From: an uncultured Chloroflexia bacterium
GTDB lineage: Bacteria > Chloroflexota > Limnocylindria > Limnocylindrales > CSP1-4
Assembly (NCBI GenBank): GCA_963809375.1
Contig: CAWEJO010000007.1
Span: forward strand, 108,048-172,047
DNA length: 64,000 nucleotides
Reading direction: 5' to 3'
This document shows, piece by piece, positions 34,636 through 40,968 of the stretch (positions within the stretch are counted from its first letter, which is position 1; every line of letters begins with the position of its first letter). The position numbers were made by a program, and so were the translations under genes. The notes under the pieces are model-generated. The model was given only the letters and a program-made list of their open reading frames with translations. It was not told where the DNA came from and ran no database searches.

Positions 34636-36099
34636 TCAGCGCCCCGCGAGCACCGGGCTGTCGGCCAGGGCCGTCACGACGTCGCCGAGCGATGCGGACA
34701 GGATCCGGGCGAGCGGCAGGTCGACGTTCCTGAGGTCGTCGCAGGCGCGGTGGTAGCAGGGGTCCGCGGCAAGGCCCGGCGTCCCGCCGGCGGCCGCCTC
34801 AGCCGGCGTCACGGCCTCCGAGGCCCCGGAGAAGACGCCCCCGATGGCGATCCCGGCCTGGTCAAATGGCCAGTGGTCCGACGAGGCACCCAAGGCGACG
34901 TCGACCGGGGCTCCGCCGGCCCGCCGGACGGCGGCCGCGAGGAGGTCGTGGATCCCGTCCGAGCCAACCGTCGGGGAGGCTTCGTGATACACGCCCGCGA
35001 AGCCGTTCGGGGAGCCGATCATGTCCGCGTTGAGGTAGGCGATGATCGCCTGCCGCTCGACGTCCGAGCGGGTCCGCACGTAGCGCGACGATCCGTGCAA
35101 CCCGAGCTCCTCGCCGCTCCAGAACGCGAGCCGGATGGTCGCGACCGGGCGTGTGCCGGCGAGCGCCCGGGCGATCTCGAGCAGCGCGGCGACGCCCGAC
35201 CCGTCGTCGTTGATGCCGGGGCCGTCGACGACCGAATCGAGGTGCGCACCGAGCATCACGACCGACGCGGGGTCGCTGCCCGGCAGCTCGGCGATGATCG
35301 ACGGGCTCGGCGTCGACGCCGTGTGGGCGTGGGTCGTGAGGCGGGCCGTCCCGCCGGCCGCGGCGATGGCGGCCAGCGCCTGGGAGGCGGGCAGCGACGC
35401 CGCCGCGGCCGGGATCTCGAGGCCGTGTGGATCGATCAACGTCGGGCGCAGGACGGCGCCGGACCCGGCCGCCATCACCGCCACGAATGCGCTCGCTCCG
35501 GCCTGCTGCGCGGCGAGGACCGCGTCGCGCCGGTAGCAGGGCCCCGACCGGACGAGCACGACCGCATGGGCCGGCAGCGTCCCGTAGTGGGTGGCGAGGC
35601 AGCCGCTCCCCGTGCCCGGAGCGCCGTGGGGATCCGCGTCGATCGCCACGACCGGGCCCTCGACCGTCCCGGGCGGAGCGAAGATGAGGGGGACGACGTC
35701 GGCGACCCCGAACCTCCGTCCGCCGGCCTCGAGGGACGACGAGCCGTCATCGACGAACGCGACGTCCGTCCACGCGTCCTCGGTCACCGTCCAGCCGGCC
35801 GTCTGGAGGATCGACTCGACGCGCGCTGCGGCGGCCGCGTAGCCCGGCGTGCCGGCGGCCCGGTAGCCGGGGTTCGGCGTGGTCGCGTCGGCGAGCTCGT
35901 GCAGGCGGTCGCGCAGCCCGCCTTCCGTGATGGCGGCGGCGACGGCGCGCGGATCCGGGCGCGGCGCCTCGGTCCCCGCCGGCTGGCCGCAGGCCCCGGC
36001 GAGCGTCATGGCGGCGAGCGCGAGGACTGTTGCGATGGAGCGCCGGCGGCCGCGCCGGACTCTCGGCGGGGACGCCCGGGCCGCGGCTCGCGATGCCAT
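34636..36099 (-). CDS. M28-family aminopeptidase, predicted lipoprotein
   Basis: Lipobox LAGAC after a basic N-terminus. M28 zinc motifs [25 protein letters not shown] and [12 protein letters not shown]. Confidence 0.85.
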
Positions 36100-36246
36100 T
36101 GCTTCATCGTAGCGACGGCGACGGCGCGGACACGGGCCGGGGCACGAGCCGGACGCGCCCGCCGTTCGCTCGTCCGCCGCCGCTCGGCCCGGCGACGCAT
36201 GCTCGCGTCGCGCCCCGTCCGCCGAGTCGCGCGGCCCGGGAATCGG

Positions 36247-36275
36247 AACGGCCGCCGGTCAGACCGACGGCCGTT
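36247..36275 (-). terminator. Strong hairpin downstream of small-ORF pair 1 (candidate terminator)
   Basis: AACGGCCGCCGGT-cag-ACCGACGGCCGTT gives a 13-bp stem with one mismatch. It lies 36 nt after the B1 stop. The minus-strand tail has only a short U run (CCGAUU). Confidence 0.4.
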
Positions 36276-36310
36276 GCGGATGCATGACGCTCACCCGGTC
36301 GAATCCCGGG

Positions 36311-36409
36311 TCAGTGCCACCGCTGCCCGGCCTCCAGCACGAAGGCGGAGGAGGCGAGGGCAGTGAGTGCGAAGAGGATCCGGAACGCGCTGACACGAAG
36401 CTGCTTCAT
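36311..36409 (-). CDS. Small hydrophobic protein B1 (32 aa): MKQLRVSAFRILFALTALASSAFVLEAGQRWH
   Basis: Hand-translated; too short for the ORF track. The ATG is 1 nt after the A1 stop (TGAcATG). It is a paralogue of B2, sharing F.R.L.ALT......VL.AGQRW-aromatic. Confidence 0.55.
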   Translation of the reverse strand: MKQLRVSAFRILFALTALASSAFVLEAGQRWH

Positions 36410-36410
36410 G

Positions 36411-36500
36411 TCAGTACCAACGGATCCCGGCACCCAGGGCGAGAGCGAGCGAGGCAAGCACCATCACGACAGTGGTGAAGCGCGCCAGGAACAGCTTCAC
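36411..36500 (-). CDS. Small hydrophobic protein A1 (29 aa): VKLFLARFTTVVMVLASLALALGAGIRWY
   Basis: Hand-translated. GTG start with GAGAGG 9 nt upstream, directly downstream of riboswitch 1. It is a close paralogue of A2, and many differences between them are synonymous (Leu, Gly and Arg codons). Confidence 0.6.
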   Translation of the reverse strand: MKLFLARFTTVVMVLASLALALGAGIRWY

Positions 36501-36535
36501 GGTTGGGAACCTCTCAGAAGGCGTGGCGCCCGCTT

Positions 36536-36622
36536 CCCTGGCAACCGGGCGTTCTCCAGCCGGCCGGACCGGAGACCCCTGGCTTTGCGTCCCCGCCTCA
36601 CGGCGGGTTTGCCCCTGGCAGG
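36536..36622 (-). promoter_or_regulatory. c-di-GMP-I (GEMM-I) riboswitch aptamer, copy 1
   Basis: Minus-strand RNA: CCUGCCAGGGGCAAACCCGCCGUGAGGCGGGGACGCAAAGCCAGGGGUCUCCGGUCCGGCCGGCUGGAGAACGCCCGGUUGCCAGGG. It contains the GEMM-I blocks CAGGGGCAAACC, a hairpin with a GNRA loop (GUGA), and GGGACGCAAAGCC. Confidence 0.75.
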
Positions 36623-36657
36623 TCGACGGGCGAAGGACGGAAGGTCCATCAGCGCGG

Positions 36658-36663
36658 ACGCTA
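36658..36663 (-). promoter_or_regulatory. Candidate -10 hexamer TAGCGT for riboswitch unit 1
   Basis: TAnnnT-type hexamer exactly 35 nt upstream of the conserved CCUGCCAGGGG. The same hexamer occurs at the same distance in unit 2, although the flanking sequence has diverged. Confidence 0.3.
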
Positions 36664-36807
36664 CAGTCGGTCGGCTGGTCGCGCCATGGTACTAATCGGT
36701 AGTTCGGGGGAGCCACCTCGGGTGATGTGCACCCGCGCACCGGCGCCTCGGGCTCGGGGTTCTCCCTGAGCCGGGCATCGTCGCGTCCCGTGGCATGGCC
36801 GGAAATC

Positions 36808-36839
36808 GCTGGAGGCCACCGACGACGGTGGCCTCCAGC
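36808..36839 (-). terminator. Perfect 13-bp hairpin downstream of small-ORF pair 2 (candidate terminator)
   Basis: GCTGGAGGCCACC-gacgac-GGTGGCCTCCAGC, 35 nt after the B2 stop. The minus-strand tail is GAUUUCC. Confidence 0.5.
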
Positions 36840-36873
36840 TTGTCGTGCGAGATGTCCGGGACAGACCCCCGGC

Positions 36874-36999
36874 TCAGAACCATCGCTGCCCGGCAGCGAG
36901 CACGTAGACCACGCTCGTCAGGGCTGCGAGCGTCCGGGCGAACCCGGCGATCGGGGAGCCCCACGCGCGCTTCGTCGCACTCGTGGACCGCGGCGCCAT
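36874..36999 (-). CDS. Small hydrophobic protein B2 (41 aa): MAPRSTSATKRAWGSPIAGFARTLAALTSVVYVLAAGQRWF
   Basis: Hand-translated. The ATG is 16 nt after the A2 stop. It shares its C-terminal half with B1 and ends in the same AGQRW-aromatic-stop motif. Confidence 0.55.
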   Translation of the reverse strand: MAPRSTSATKRAWGSPIAGFARTLAALTSVVYVLAAGQRWF

Positions 37000-37015
37000 C
37001 GTTCGAACCCCGGGC

Positions 37016-37168
37016 CTAGGGGACGATGCTCAGATCGACACTGCCCGGATCGACACCCCCGACGACGGACGCGGCCATCGCGCACCAGCGGATGCCGGCC
37101 CCGAGCGTCAGCGAAAGTGCGGCCAGGATCATCACGACCGAGGTGAAGCGCACCAGGATCTGCTTCAC
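37016..37168 (-). CDS. Small hydrophobic protein A2 (50 aa): VKQILVRFTSVVMILAALSLTLGAGIRWCAMAASVVGGVDPGSVDLSIVP
   Basis: Hand-translated. GTG start with GAGAGG 6 nt upstream, directly downstream of riboswitch 2. The first 29 residues align with A1; it reads through the position of the A1 stop. Confidence 0.6.
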   Translation of the reverse strand: MKQILVRFTSVVMILAALSLTLGAGIRWCAMAASVVGGVDPGSVDLSIVP

Positions 37169-37200
37169 TACGAACCTCTCTGCGTTCGAGGACCCGTCGC

Positions 37201-37287
37201 CCCTGGCAACCGGGCGGTCTCCGGCCGGCCGGACCGAAGATCCCTGGCTTTGCGTCGCCGCCTCGCGGCGGGTTTGCCCCTGGCAGG
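37201..37287 (-). promoter_or_regulatory. c-di-GMP-I (GEMM-I) riboswitch aptamer, copy 2
   Basis: Minus-strand RNA: CCUGCCAGGGGCAAACCCGCCGCGAGGCGGCGACGCAAAGCCAGGGAUCUUCGGUCCGGCCGGCCGGAGACCGCCCGGUUGCCAGGG. It has the same 87-nt length and blocks as copy 1, with a GCGA tetraloop. The substitutions in the distal helix preserve pairing. Confidence 0.75.
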
Positions 37288-37322
37288 TGGGATCGGGGAA
37301 GGCCGTCTGGCCTCCGCCGTGA

Positions 37323-37328
37323 ACGCTA
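37323..37328 (-). promoter_or_regulatory. Candidate -10 hexamer TAGCGT for riboswitch unit 2
   Basis: Same hexamer and same 35-nt distance to the aptamer as in unit 1. A GTACC.TGGC motif lies 24 nt upstream in both units. Confidence 0.3.
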
Positions 37329-37357
37329 TTCCCCGTTTGGCGCGCCGGCCACGGTAC

Positions 37358-37922
37358 CTATGGTGCGGGTTCGGCGTCCGCTCGGGCGATGTGCGGCGCG
37401 GCACCGCGGCGCATCGCGGCAACGATGATGACCACCACGCCGACGCCGATCAGGATGTCGCCGACGCTGAAGATGTTGGCGCCGGGCATCCAGCGCGGCA
37501 TGGCGAACACGTCGGTCAGGAGCTCCAGGTTCGGATGCGCCACGGCGGCGCTGTTCGAGTACTCGGTGCCGAGGACCCGGCCGAGCGCCGCCAGGGCGGA
37601 AGCGCCCGCGGGCATGTAGCCGCCGTTCGCGACGATCGCGGCCAGGTTGCAGGCGGCGCCCGCCACCAGGATCGGGACGCCGGTGACCCGCCAGTTCGCG
37701 GCGATCGCCAGCAGCACCGCCACGGTCGACAGCGACGTAGAGGGGCGGGCCGAGGCTCCCGACGCGCTCGGTGACGGCAGGCGAGAACAGGATGACCTGC
37801 CCGAGGAGCCCGAAGACGAAGACCGGCGCCCACCGGAACTGGAGTCCGGCCAGGTTGCCGAGGCGGCCGCCGAGGAGCAGGCCGAGGACGAGACCCACCG
37901 GGATGGCGTACAGCATGAACAC
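37358..37922 (-). pseudogene. DUF5317-like polytopic membrane protein, interrupted by one frameshift (or a sequencing indel)
   Basis: The N-terminal part MFMLYAIPVGLVLGLLLGGRL...RFRWAPVFVF...GPPLYV lies in the frame of the 37922 ORF. The C-terminal part LSTVAVLLAIAANWR...AAIVANGGYMPAG...AMPRWMPGANIFSVGDILIG lies in the frame of the 37358 ORF. The junction is near 37731-37741. The family assignment is from memory. Confidence 0.55.
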
Positions 37923-38424
37923 GGCGCGTCACCTGGGGGCGGCTGCTGGGTTGACCCATCGCGGATCCCGCCCGCGCGAGGGTTCGGCCGGACCGCCCGG
38001 CCAGTCGGGTGCAGTCTCCCGCCCGGCCGCTGCCCGGTCCGTCGCCCGAAAGTCCCACGCGGGCTGGTTCGGGTCCTCCCCCCGGGTGGGGCGGCGCTGC
38101 CCCGGCGCGCGTGGAAGTACTTTCGTCCCGGTGCGCGAGCGCCGGCATTGCCCGGAGAATGCTGGTCTGGGCCCACCATGGGCCGGTCCGGACGCGCTTG
38201 GCCGCGCCCCGGAGTGCCGCCCCCAGCTTGCCGGGGAGATGCCCGACCAGCCCGCAATCGCAGATTCGCCGCCCGTGAGGCGTGCCGCGACCCGGCCGAC
38301 CCAGCTCGGTCCGGAGATCGAGCACTTCGCCGGCTCGGCGCGCGTCGCCGACCTCGGCCCCGACCCGGCGGACCCTGGCTTCCACGCCGACGACGAGCCG
38401 GGCGCGCCGCCGTCCCCGTCATCG

Positions 38425-40968
38425 ATGCGCTCGGCCCAGGTTCGGGTCGCGATCGTCGCCGGGCTCGTCGCGGGAGCGGCGGCGCTCCTGTCCGTCCTCC
38501 TGCTGCCGCACATGCGGCCGTTCGGGGCGCCCTACCACGTGCCGTGGTGGCTGGTCGCGCTGGGCTTCTTCATCGCGGACTGGAAGGTCCTCCACGTCCA
38601 CTTCCGGCGCGAGACGCACGTGTTCACGATGATCGAGGTCCCCGTCGTGGCTGGCCTCTTCCTGCTCGCGCCGGCCGAGTACCTGCTCGCCGCCGTCACG
38701 GGCGGCGGCCTCGGGCTCCTCGTCACGGGGCGGGGCTCGTGGCTGAAGATGGCGTACAACCTGGCGCTCGCGGCCCTGATCGGGATCGTGATCCTGGCCA
38801 TCTTCCAGCTGTTCACCGACCACACGCCCCCACCGTCGCTTGCCGACTGGGTCGCCGCGGTCCTGGCGACCCTGGCGGCAGCCGTCCTCGCCGCGATCCT
38901 CACCGCGACCGTGATCACGGCTTCGGGCGGAGCGCCGCAGTTCCACAAGCTGCCCGAGATGATCCGGTTCGGCAGCCTGATCGCGGTCGCGAACACCAGC
39001 CTCGCGCTCCTGGCGATCACGGTGATGTGGCAGGACCAGGCAGCCATCGCCCTGGTCGCCCTGCCCCTGCTGGCCCTCTTCTTCGTCTACGGCGCCTACC
39101 TGTCCGAACGCGAGAAGCATCAGCGCCTCGAGCTGCTCTACCAGTCGAGCCGGATCATGCAGCACAGCCCGGAGCTGGACTCGGCGATCATGGCCGTGCT
39201 CGAGCACGCCCGCGAGATGTTCCGCGCGGAGACTGCCGAGATCCTGCTCTTCCCGCAGCCCGGCTCGGGCGAGGCGCTCCGGACGGTCGCCCGGAGCGAG
39301 GGCGAGCCCGAGGTGATGGTGCCGGTGCCGTTCGATCCCGACGATCCGCTGGCCCGGCGGACGGCGACCGAGGGCCGCGCCTTCTTCCCGGTCGACCCGC
39401 GCGGAGCGACCGACAGCCAGGTGATGCTCAGCCCGCTCGCGGGCGACTCGGGCATCTTCGGGATGATGCGGGTCGCCCACCGCCTGACGGCCGGGACGAG
39501 CTTCGACACCGACGACCTGCGCCTGCTCGAGACGCTCGCCAACCAGGCGGCGGTCGCCCTCGAGAACGGCCAGCTCGAGCAGTCTCTCGCCGAGCTGTCG
39601 CGCCTCAAGGAGCAGCTCCGGTTCCTGGCCTACCACGATCCGCTCACCAGCCTGCCGAACCGGATCTCGATGGCGGAGGAGATCGACACCCGCCTCTCGA
39701 CCCCGGGTGCGGAGCCCCCCACGATCCTGTACATCGACCTCGACGACTTCAAGGTCGTCAACGACTCGCTCGGCCACCACGCCGGCGACGAGATCCTCGT
39801 CGCGGCGTCCGACCGGATCCGCAACTGCCTTGGCCCGGGCGACGTGGCGGCCCGCCTCGGCGGCGACGAGTTCGCCGTGCTCCTCACCGAGGGCGAGCGA
39901 TTCGACAGGTCGACCGCGACGAGCGCGGCGCTCCTCCGGGTGCTCCGCTCGCCGTTCGTCCTCAACGGCCAGGAGATGACCATCGGGGCGAGCATCGGGA
40001 TCGCGACGTGGCGGGCGGGCCAGTCGGCCGACGAGCTGCTGCGCGACGCCGACGTCGCCATGTACGCCGCCAAGACCAGCGGCAAGCGCCGCATCGCCCG
40101 GTTCGACCCGTCGATGCACGCCGCCCTCGTCGCCCGCCACACGCTCTCGGTCGAGCTCGCGCGTGGGCTCGAGCGCGGGGAGCTCGAGGTCCACTACCAG
40201 CCGATCGTGGAGCTCGTCTCGGGCCGCATCACGGCGATCGAGGCGCTCGCCCGCTGGCGCCATCCGGTGCGCGGCCTGATCTCCCCCGACGAGTTCATCG
40301 CGATCGCCGAGGAGACCGGCTCGATCAACACGCTCGGCCGGATCGTCCTCGTCCAGGCCGCGGCCCAGGTCGCCCGCTGGAGCAGGCTGCCCGACATCGG
40401 GCCCGACCTGCGGGTCTCCATCAACGTCTCGCCGGTGGAGCTGCTCCAGGTCGACTTCGTGGGTGACGTCCGGTCGGCCCTCGAGATCGCCGGCCTCGCC
40501 TCCGACCAGCTGATCCTGGAGGTCACCGAGACGGTCATGCTGCGCGACACGCAGCCGACGATCGCCAAGCTCGACGAGCTGACGAGGATCGGCGTCGGCG
40601 TCGCCGTCGACGACTTCGGGACCGGCTACTCGTCGCTGGGCTACCTGCGCCGGTTCCCCGTCAGCGTCCTCAAGATCGCCCGGGAGTTCGTCCCGCCGTC
40701 GCACTCGCAGACCGCCGAGGCTGACTGGGCCGTCGCGAGCACGATCATCGCCCTTGGCCGGGCGATGAACCTGCGGGTCGTCGCCGAAGGCATCGAGGAG
40801 GCGGTCCAGCTCGACCGGCTCCGGGCCATGGGCTGCGAGTTCGGCCAGGGGTACCTCTTCCTCCCGCCGCACGACGCCGCCACGATCGAGCCCTACCTGC
40901 GGGGCGTCGTCGAGCTCGACGGCGGCGCGTCGGTCGCCACCCGGGCTGCCCGCGAGCCGGCCGCCTGA
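38425..40968 (+). CDS. Membrane-bound GAF-GGDEF-EAL protein (diguanylate cyclase/phosphodiesterase)
   Basis: About 8 TM helices, then a GAF-like region. The GGDEF domain has RLGGDEFAVLL and the EAL domain has YQPIV ... AIEALARW ... DDFGTGYSSL ... KIAREF. The start is uncertain (ATG at 38425, ATG at 38240 or further upstream); the track start at 37771 overlaps the divergent gene. Confidence 0.9.
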   Translation: MRSAQVRVAIVAGLVAGAAALLSVLLLPHMRPFGAPYHVPWWLVALGFFIADWKVLHVHFRRETHVFTMIEVPVVAGLFLLAPAEYLLAAVTGGGLGLLVTGRGSWLKMAYNLALAALIGIVILAIFQLFTDHTPPPSLADWVAAVLATLAAAVLAAILTATVITASGGAPQFHKLPEMIRFGSLIAVANTSLALLAITVMWQDQAAIALVALPLLALFFVYGAYLSEREKHQRLELLYQSSRIMQHSPELDSAIMAVLEHAREMFRAETAEILLFPQPGSGEALRTVARSEGEPEVMVPVPFDPDDPLARRTATEGRAFFPVDPRGATDSQVMLSPLAGDSGIFGMMRVAHRLTAGTSFDTDDLRLLETLANQAAVALENGQLEQSLAELSRLKEQLRFLAYHDPLTSLPNRISMAEEIDTRLSTPGAEPPTILYIDLDDFKVVNDSLGHHAGDEILVAASDRIRNCLGPGDVAARLGGDEFAVLLTEGERFDRSTATSAALLRVLRSPFVLNGQEMTIGASIGIATWRAGQSADELLRDADVAMYAAKTSGKRRIARFDPSMHAALVARHTLSVELARGLERGELEVHYQPIVELVSGRITAIEALARWRHPVRGLISPDEFIAIAEETGSINTLGRIVLVQAAAQVARWSRLPDIGPDLRVSINVSPVELLQVDFVGDVRSALEIAGLASDQLILEVTETVMLRDTQPTIAKLDELTRIGVGVAVDDFGTGYSSLGYLRRFPVSVLKIAREFVPPSHSQTAEADWAVASTIIALGRAMNLRVVAEGIEEAVQLDRLRAMGCEFGQGYLFLPPHDAATIEPYLRGVVELDGGASVATRAAREPAA

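Follow-up and report, generated by a model that had tools for sequence, protein, structure and literature searches.

Two canonical c-di-GMP-I riboswitch aptamers, each heading a probable micropeptide unit, in a Chloroflexota genome

What do two riboswitch-like elements for cyclic di-GMP (c-di-GMP) control when they stand on the same strand within 670 nucleotides (nt) of each other? In this work, we have addressed this question in a stretch of 64,000 nt, hereafter the window, from an uncultured Chloroflexia bacterium (assembly GCA_963809375.1, contig CAWEJO010000007.1, positions 108,048 to 172,047), in which a first-pass annotation had placed two such elements on the minus strand. We consider it probable that these are two canonical c-di-GMP-I aptamers, each heading a short unit that codes for two micropeptides and is likely to be under translational control, and that the peptides are an output or feedback element of c-di-GMP signalling. 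The regulated genes, a conserved micropeptide pair that the first-pass annotation missed, are the more interesting part of the locus. Our reading is built on the identity and structure of the aptamers, the conservation of the peptides, the synteny of the locus and the constraint on codons 1–9 of the first peptide, and beyond these we infer ligand binding, the OFF direction of the switch and the role of the peptides.

RESULTS

The two aptamers and their structure

A cmscan of the whole 64-kb window against Rfam 15, at gathering thresholds (GA), matched the downstream aptamer (unit 1; 36536..36622, minus strand) to RF03167 (c-di-GMP-I-GGC; 61.5 bits, GA 59, E 4.5e-12) and the upstream aptamer (unit 2; 37201..37288, minus strand) to RF01051 (c-di-GMP-I; 37202-37288, 54.9 bits, GA 35, E 5.6e-8). 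Both matches are far above chance, and besides these two sites the scan gave no Rfam match above the gathering score elsewhere in the window. One more match of the clan passed its own GA and was suppressed by clan competition; since RF03167 on the upstream copy (37201-37287) reached 50.7 bits in a permissive local scan, under its GA of 59, it is most probable that RF01051 was hidden in this way on the downstream copy. In the permissive local scan no match to c-di-GMP-II (RF01786) appeared in 35500-38500, even at E<=10. The first-pass annotation had named RF01051 and RF01786 as the families to compare, and both elements fall in the c-di-GMP-I clan above GA.

Direct reading of the minus strand, together with the Rfam matches, bears out the two 87-nt elements and the ordered blocks that had been described: CAGGGGCAAACC, a CCGCC-GNRA-GGCGG hairpin, G(G/C)GACGCAAAGCC, a distal helix and GCCCGGUUGCCAGGG. 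The differences between the copies are also as first stated, the tetraloop of P2 being GUGA in 36622-36536 and GCGA in 37287-37201, and the distal helix UCUCC/GGAGA in the former and UCUUC/GGAGA in the latter. In the upstream copy P1 is CCUG/CAGG and P2, with its GCGA tetraloop, is followed by P3. The duplicated segment comprises about 45 nt of 5΄ flank, the aptamer, the Shine-Dalgarno (SD) sequence and the first small open reading frame (ORF).

To this we can add the covariation of the canonical P1, P2 and P3 helices, which we scored on 49 distinct related aptamers, both window copies included. In this alignment 89.1% of the cells are paired, against 29–47% when the partners are slid by 1–3 columns, and the observed covariation score was reached by 0 of 500 shuffles. 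Compensatory changes, on both sides of the pair, occur in 15 of the 28 pairs, those of P1 included (CG/UA/UG at 7:96 and AU/CG/UA at 5:98), and in many lineages P1 runs outward into a longer helix. The three-helix architecture, with P1, a GNRA-looped P2 and P3, is kept by compensatory changes. These data support the view that both elements are genuine c-di-GMP-I (GEMM-I) riboswitch aptamers of the ordinary type, which would bind c-di-GMP.

A conserved pair of micropeptides

Each aptamer is followed by two small ORFs on the same minus strand. In unit 2, ORF A (37016..37168) encodes a type-1 micropeptide of 50 amino acids (aa), C-terminally extended (MKQILVRFTSVVMILAALSLTLGAGIRWC plus 21 aa), and ORF B (36874..36999) a type-2 micropeptide of 41 aa with the end VLAAGQRWF. 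In unit 1, ORF C (36411..36500) encodes a type-1 micropeptide of 29 aa, VKLFLARFTTVVMVLASLALALGAGIRWY, and ORF D (36311..36409), whose start lies 1 nt past the stop of ORF C, a type-2 micropeptide of 32 aa with the end VLEAGQRWH. All four follow a common plan, with a basic N-terminus, a single hydrophobic helix and a C-terminal (G/A/E)AG(I/Q)RW-x, and no credible Pfam or NCBIfam match was found for these four peptides or for four relatives (for the window peptides, Pfam at E<=0.01). The product of ORF A (P0003) is called in identical form on two other contigs. The GTG starts at 36500 and 37168 lie 35 and 32 nt past the ends of their aptamers, and a GAGAGG SD precedes the GTG of ORF A by 6 nt (37175..37180) and that of ORF C by 9 nt (36510..36515). 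The distance of 35–50 nt from aptamer to SD and GTG given in the first-pass annotation therefore holds roughly for the start codon, the SD being nearer to the aptamer.

How widely does this arrangement occur? When reference genomes were scanned with a DNA pattern of the aptamer core, two Chloroflexota metagenome-assembled genomes (MAGs) showed the riboswitch ahead of KANLARFT...LGAGIRW and ...AGHRWW ORFs, and a scan of metagenomes confirmed 221 loci, 80 of which were fetched. The related set used here holds 72 units in 63 sources, that is, 62 related loci and the window. A profile search of a protein collection gave, for the first peptide, at least 75 clusters of proteins, nearly all of 29 aa and labelled 'hypothetical', with the consensus (M/V)KANLARFTxxxxxxAS(M/L)ALTLGAG(I/L/M)(R/K)W-x and no Pfam or NCBIfam match for the family; ORFs A and C are members. 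The first ORF starts with GTG in 71 of the 72 units, its stop stays at codon 29–30, the aptamer core keeps a constant distance from the peptide ORF, and a second small ORF ending in AG(H/Q)RW-x, the pattern seen in ORF B, follows within 330 nt in 62 units. An Rfam scan of 20 loci returned a c-di-GMP-I-clan match above GA ahead of every unit (23/23). Because third positions in codons 10–28 vary far more than second positions (entropy 1.18 against 0.25 bits), the conservation of the family shows the peptide ORFs, at the level of sequence, to be real, conserved genes. At least eight other loci also have riboswitch-peptide units in tandem, and most of them share with the window a first peptide with a C-terminal extension and a second one of 29 aa.

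The peptides have the shape of signal peptides or of single-pass membrane micropeptides. Longer forms of peptide 1 repeat its terminal motif, as in …LGAGIRW-EAVTN-GIRWG (P0009, P0017, P0022, P0023, P0029 and P0041; L027, L029, L030 and L098), which suggests that G-(I/V)-R-W is the functional unit of this peptide. One homologue carries the name of a Flp/Fap pilin at the Joint Genome Institute (JGI). We rejected this identity: P0077 gave no Pfam family at E<=10, and none of the 75 sequences has the EY processing motif (G/XXXXEY expected).

The start-codon hairpin and the direction of the switch

In both units the start codon of the first peptide is covered by a hairpin that the first nine codons form. 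In unit 2 (37142..37168, minus strand) it reads GUGAAGC...GCUUCAC and has a free energy of -9.3 kcal/mol, covering the GUG of ORF A; in unit 1 (36474..36500, minus strand) it reads GUGAAGCUG...GCGCUUCAC, with -11.0 kcal/mol and a z of -2.2, covering the GUG of ORF C. In the family, GUGAAG/CUUCAC forms a 9-base-pair (bp) hairpin that buries the start codon, the consensus having -11.1 kcal/mol, and codons 1–9 of peptide 1 (GTG AAG GCG AAC CTG GCG CGC TTC ACC) are near-invariant as nucleotides. Among codons for invariant residues the third-position entropy is 0.17 bits in codons 2–9 against 1.44 bits in codons 16–25, and later codons for equally invariant residues use 3–5 different codons, so the codon usage of the family shows a constraint acting at the RNA level on codons 1–9. 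Neither direct reading nor the terminator scan found a U-tract terminator between aptamer and start. Translational control, as the first-pass annotation had proposed, is the best reading, since no such terminator precedes the start and the start codon lies in a conserved hairpin.

The direction of this control was modelled with Boltzmann ensembles of 50 family leaders, with P1 enforced as a proxy for the ligand-bound state or with P1 absent. With P1 enforced the start codon was unpaired with a probability of 0.08, as against 0.28 without P1; it was the more open in the absence of P1 in 30 leaders, the reverse being seen in 1. When P1 is absent, the loop and the 3΄ strand of the hairpin pair mainly with the ACGCAAAGCCAGG core of the aptamer, and if the aptamer interior is shuffled the effect falls from 0.20 in the real sequences to 0.09 (Wilcoxon p = 2e-5).

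We propose that c-di-GMP would lock the aptamer with P1 formed, which would leave the start-codon hairpin with no competitor and turn translation OFF, and that in the unliganded aptamer G-rich core strands (GCCAGG) would pair with CCUGGC(G)CG of the ORF and open the start codon. In this folding model we place even to moderate confidence in the closing of the start codon by c-di-GMP. The specific GCCAGG:CCUGGC pairing between aptamer and ORF was discarded as a mechanism of its own, its energy being no better than that of shuffles, and is kept as a plausible contributor. A role of the conserved 5΄ hairpin (GAGGAC..GUCCUCC) as an anti-SD was also rejected: SD accessibility does not differ in a consistent way in the two ensembles, lineages with GUCCACC for GUCCUCC show no matching change in the SD, and the 5΄ hairpins of the window alone are not significant.

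Boundaries of the units

A strong hairpin closes each unit. After ORF B, unit 2 ends in a terminator-like 14-bp GC hairpin followed by CGAUUUCC (36801..36838, minus strand; -54.8 kcal/mol over 101 nt, z -4.5), and after ORF D, unit 1 ends in one of 13 bp followed by CCGAUUCC (36239..36275, minus strand; z -2.7). Both hairpins are perfect and GC-rich and run into CGAUU(U)CC, with very short U tracts. The consensus promoter and terminator scan was empty in this region of 73% GC and missed these hairpins too.

Upstream, aptamer 2 is preceded by a promoter-like TAGCGT (37328-37323) and a 5΄ hairpin GGAGGCC-AGAC-GGCCUUCC (37315-37297), which together span 37297..37328 on the minus strand, and aptamer 1 by the same TAGCGT (36663-36658) and the hairpin GGAC-CUUCC-GUCC (36647-36635), spanning 36635..36663; the function of these elements is putative. 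The 5΄ hairpin of aptamer 2 alone is not significant and lies, as does TAGCGT, in the duplicated segment. In both units TAGCGT stands about 8 nt ahead of the 5΄ hairpin, and a TAG(G/T)ACC motif (37354-37360 and 36688-36694, minus strand) about 32 nt further upstream. Both motifs occur at similar spacing in about 60 related loci and probably serve as a promoter, or as an operator for some factor. Since each unit has its own end hairpin and its own upstream motifs, we read the two as independent transcription units, and the tandem transcription units of the first-pass annotation fit with this and with the separate ORFs.

The neighbouring genes

Directly upstream of unit 2 lies a gene for a DUF5317 membrane protein (37358..37922, minus strand; Pfam PF17248, E 4.5e-22). 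Compared with L001, a near-identical contig in the European Nucleotide Archive, the window copy carries a 1-nt insertion near 37734 and a 1-nt deletion near 37398; its frame is split, and the gene caller gives just a 121-aa product (P0078), the intact protein in L001 having 196 aa. Of the 62 related loci, 53 have DUF5317 next upstream on the same strand, the median distance between the end of its match and the peptide start being 291 nt. In the opposite direction runs a GAF-GGDEF-EAL gene for the synthesis and breakdown of c-di-GMP (37771..40968, plus strand; Pfam EAL 8.4e-66, GGDEF 1.8e-40, GAF_3 4.5e-12), which probably begins near 38041, to judge from the 975-aa protein called on the near-identical contig. 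A GGDEF-EAL orthologue (at least 40% identity) is present in 38 of the 62 loci, in four arrangements: upstream on the same strand (19), downstream on the same strand (10), divergent (6) and convergent (3). The trio of DUF5317, GAF-GGDEF-EAL and riboswitch-peptide unit is also found on unrelated contigs. Because the large genes change place and the adjacency of riboswitch and peptide does not, we take the peptides to be the conserved regulated target.

In ten loci (L039, L042-L044, L048, L058, L060, L064, L070 and L088) the peptide pair is followed directly, on the same strand, by the GAF-GGDEF-EAL gene, and there the riboswitch could also influence the expression of the enzyme.

As for DUF5317 itself, a sub-threshold Pfam match to signal peptidase II (E 0.07-0.08, 13.5 bits against a cut-off of 25) and two JGI names had led to the idea of an LspA-like peptidase (Peptidase_A8) that would cut the peptides at LGAG|IRW. 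The idea failed all stronger tests: hhalign gave a probability of 0.8% for DUF5317 against LspA, hmmsearch of the family profile against the PDB gave no match, and Foldseek with the AlphaFold2 model of the homologue P0079 (mc860b2f771b7) against the PDB gave a best E of 4.5 and no LspA. This model, with a mean per-residue confidence (pLDDT) of 85.5 and a predicted template-modelling score (pTM) of 0.80, has five helices and short strands, and its fold may have no solved representative. Our literature search found no paper on DUF5317.

DISCUSSION

Which member of the clan is present? RF03167 shares with these RNAs the overall architecture with a modelled P1, and it is the best model for 36536-36622 and for many related loci. 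This copy might be a c-di-GMP-I-GGC variant with altered ligand specificity, its paralogue being a diverged copy. We take the ligand-contacting positions to be G20, A47 and C92 in Vc2 numbering, and 'GGC' in the name of the variant presumably gives the nucleotides at G20/A47/C92, that is, A47 changed to G. In the Rfam consensus RF03167 reads GGGACGC-G-AAGCC and RF01051 GGACGC-A-AAGCC. The position after ACGC is A in both window copies (ACGCAAAGCC; the upstream copy reads ACGC-A-AAGCC) and in 49 of 49 aligned relatives, as it is in the related loci for which RF03167 is the top model, and the G column of the model is mismatched in both RF03167 alignments. The high score comes from the P1 and the GC-rich stems included in the model, not from a change in the binding site, and the other copy remains below the RF03167 threshold. 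Since A, not G, follows ACGC, neither copy is a GGC variant, and we judge an altered specificity of the downstream copy to be highly improbable. The c-AMP-GMP riboswitch (GEMM-Ib), in which A replaces G at the G20 position, is ruled out for both copies as well, because they carry G there (CAGGGGCAAAC). By their letters at the contact positions (G before the GC of GGCAAAC, A after ACGC, and C in UUGCC before the 3΄ strand of P1), which are invariant or nearly so among relatives, both copies read as canonical c-di-GMP-I aptamers. As RF03167 is the best model for one copy and many relatives, the GGC variant itself probably arose within this aptamer lineage.

Two further alternatives concern what the aptamers do. 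The small ORFs could be a mere leader, the riboswitch controlling a larger downstream gene (an M28 peptidase here, GGDEF-EAL in other genomes) or acting by premature or Rho-dependent termination, and the RNA-level constraint on codons 1–9 and the ten loci with GGDEF-EAL downstream on the same strand would agree with this. We find it improbable, since the peptide pair is the only invariant downstream feature, whereas in most loci, the window included, the large neighbours differ or are found upstream or on the opposite strand; moreover, codons 10–28 vary in a coding pattern with the stop fixed at codon 29–30, a strong hairpin closes each unit ahead of the next gene, and a U-tract terminator is missing between aptamer and start. 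It is less improbable, though still unlikely in our view, that the polarity is the opposite one and c-di-GMP binding turns translation ON, for example if P1 and its extension removed a strand that blocks the SD or the start. c-di-GMP-I riboswitches of both polarities are known; the P1 formed here by the flanks is extended and covarying, with its 3΄ strand right next to the SD region, and without P1 that strand and the linker are further pairing partners of the start-codon strand. In the ensembles, on the other hand, the start codon is nearly always paired with P1 enforced (unpaired 0.08), a single leader of the 50 is more open in that state, and SD accessibility trends neither way.

The variant aptamers of three other loci deserve mention. 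At L024:6876-6968, and also in L025 and L026, a 37-aa peptide (…GAGIRWDALFIGVRW) is preceded by an aptamer with GACAGGCAAAC and ACGCAGAACC, in which U replaces the conserved C before the 3΄ strand of P1; RF01051 gives it only 40.4 bits, and its ligand specificity may be altered.

Several points weigh against our reading of the locus as a c-di-GMP-controlled OFF switch for a working peptide module. Part of the folding effect is generic, as shuffled aptamer interiors keep a difference of 0.09, and across the 50 leaders SD accessibility shows no consistent change from one ensemble to the other. The aptamer-ORF duplex has no excess of stability over dinucleotide shuffles (z 0 to -0.9), both of its partners are invariant and hence uninformative for covariation, and a GC content of 73% makes thermodynamic predictions noisy. 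All the sequences are derived from metagenomes. Finally, with its DUF5317 gene frameshifted, the module may be decaying in this genome, though the frameshift could also be an assembly error.

How do these units compare with systems already described? The aptamers resemble the c-di-GMP-I class (RF01051), represented by Vc2 of Vibrio cholerae, in their ordered blocks, GNRA-looped P2, P3, a P1 formed by the flanks and a score above GA, and they are in themselves routine additional members of a well-known class. They differ in their GC-rich stems and long, extended P1, in an expression platform of which a part, the start-codon hairpin, would belong to the ORF, and in their targets, which here are peptides of 29–50 aa, whereas the usual ones are enzymes, adhesins and motility or pilus genes. 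Tandem arrangements are also familiar, 347 c-di-GMP-I tandem doublets having been reported (PMC9481103). The window agrees with them in having two aptamers of the same class on the same strand, an arrangement that recurs in other genomes; unlike them, each window aptamer has its own SD, start, two ORFs and terminator-like hairpin. Because each aptamer has its own ORFs and terminator-like hairpin, the locus is not a classical tandem riboswitch, and where ORFs of fewer than 50 codons are ignored in annotation, such loci could be wrongly counted as tandem riboswitches. A true tandem is seen at L020:2960-3110, in a Solirubrobacterales MAG, where two c-di-GMP-I aptamers stand about 100 nt apart with no peptide ORF between them.

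What could the peptides do? By analogy, they recall small membrane proteins that modulate larger sensors or enzymes of the membrane, such as MgrB with PhoQ, and peptide signals derived from signal peptides, such as the enterococcal pheromones and Phr/SHP, in being short, with a basic N-terminus and one hydrophobic helix, in the small-residue LGAG motif followed by an IRW-x tail, and in being encoded beside a membrane signalling enzyme, although they have no sequence relationship with these peptides. We identified no peptide-processing enzyme. Since the units belong to a conserved module with DUF5317 and GAF-GGDEF-EAL, the peptides probably serve a local c-di-GMP circuit as an output or a feedback element, and we hypothesize from synteny a feedback role on the neighbouring c-di-GMP enzyme. 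In its fullest form, to which we give less than even weight and which we offer tentatively, our proposal is that the pair would be a previously unrecognised c-di-GMP output of Chloroflexota and Actinomycetota that acts on DUF5317 and GAF-GGDEF-EAL in a feedback loop on local c-di-GMP; the 29-aa peptide and the partner that ends in AGHRW would both be micropeptides of the membrane, or else precursors that resemble signal peptides and are processed and exported, and the expression platform would lie partly in the first nine codons.

None of the papers retrieved in our literature search links c-di-GMP riboswitches to small ORFs, and the peptide module appears to be undescribed in the searchable literature. 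What does the locus then mean? It exposes a class of small proteins overlooked by gene callers and by surveys of tandem riboswitches, it gives a testable entry to DUF5317, a family of unknown function, and it would illustrate how the expression platform of a riboswitch can lie within coding sequence. A riboswitch labels the genes of the regulon of its ligand, and here the label falls on a conserved, unannotated micropeptide pair, in a module that travels with a c-di-GMP-making and -breaking enzyme in many soil bacteria.

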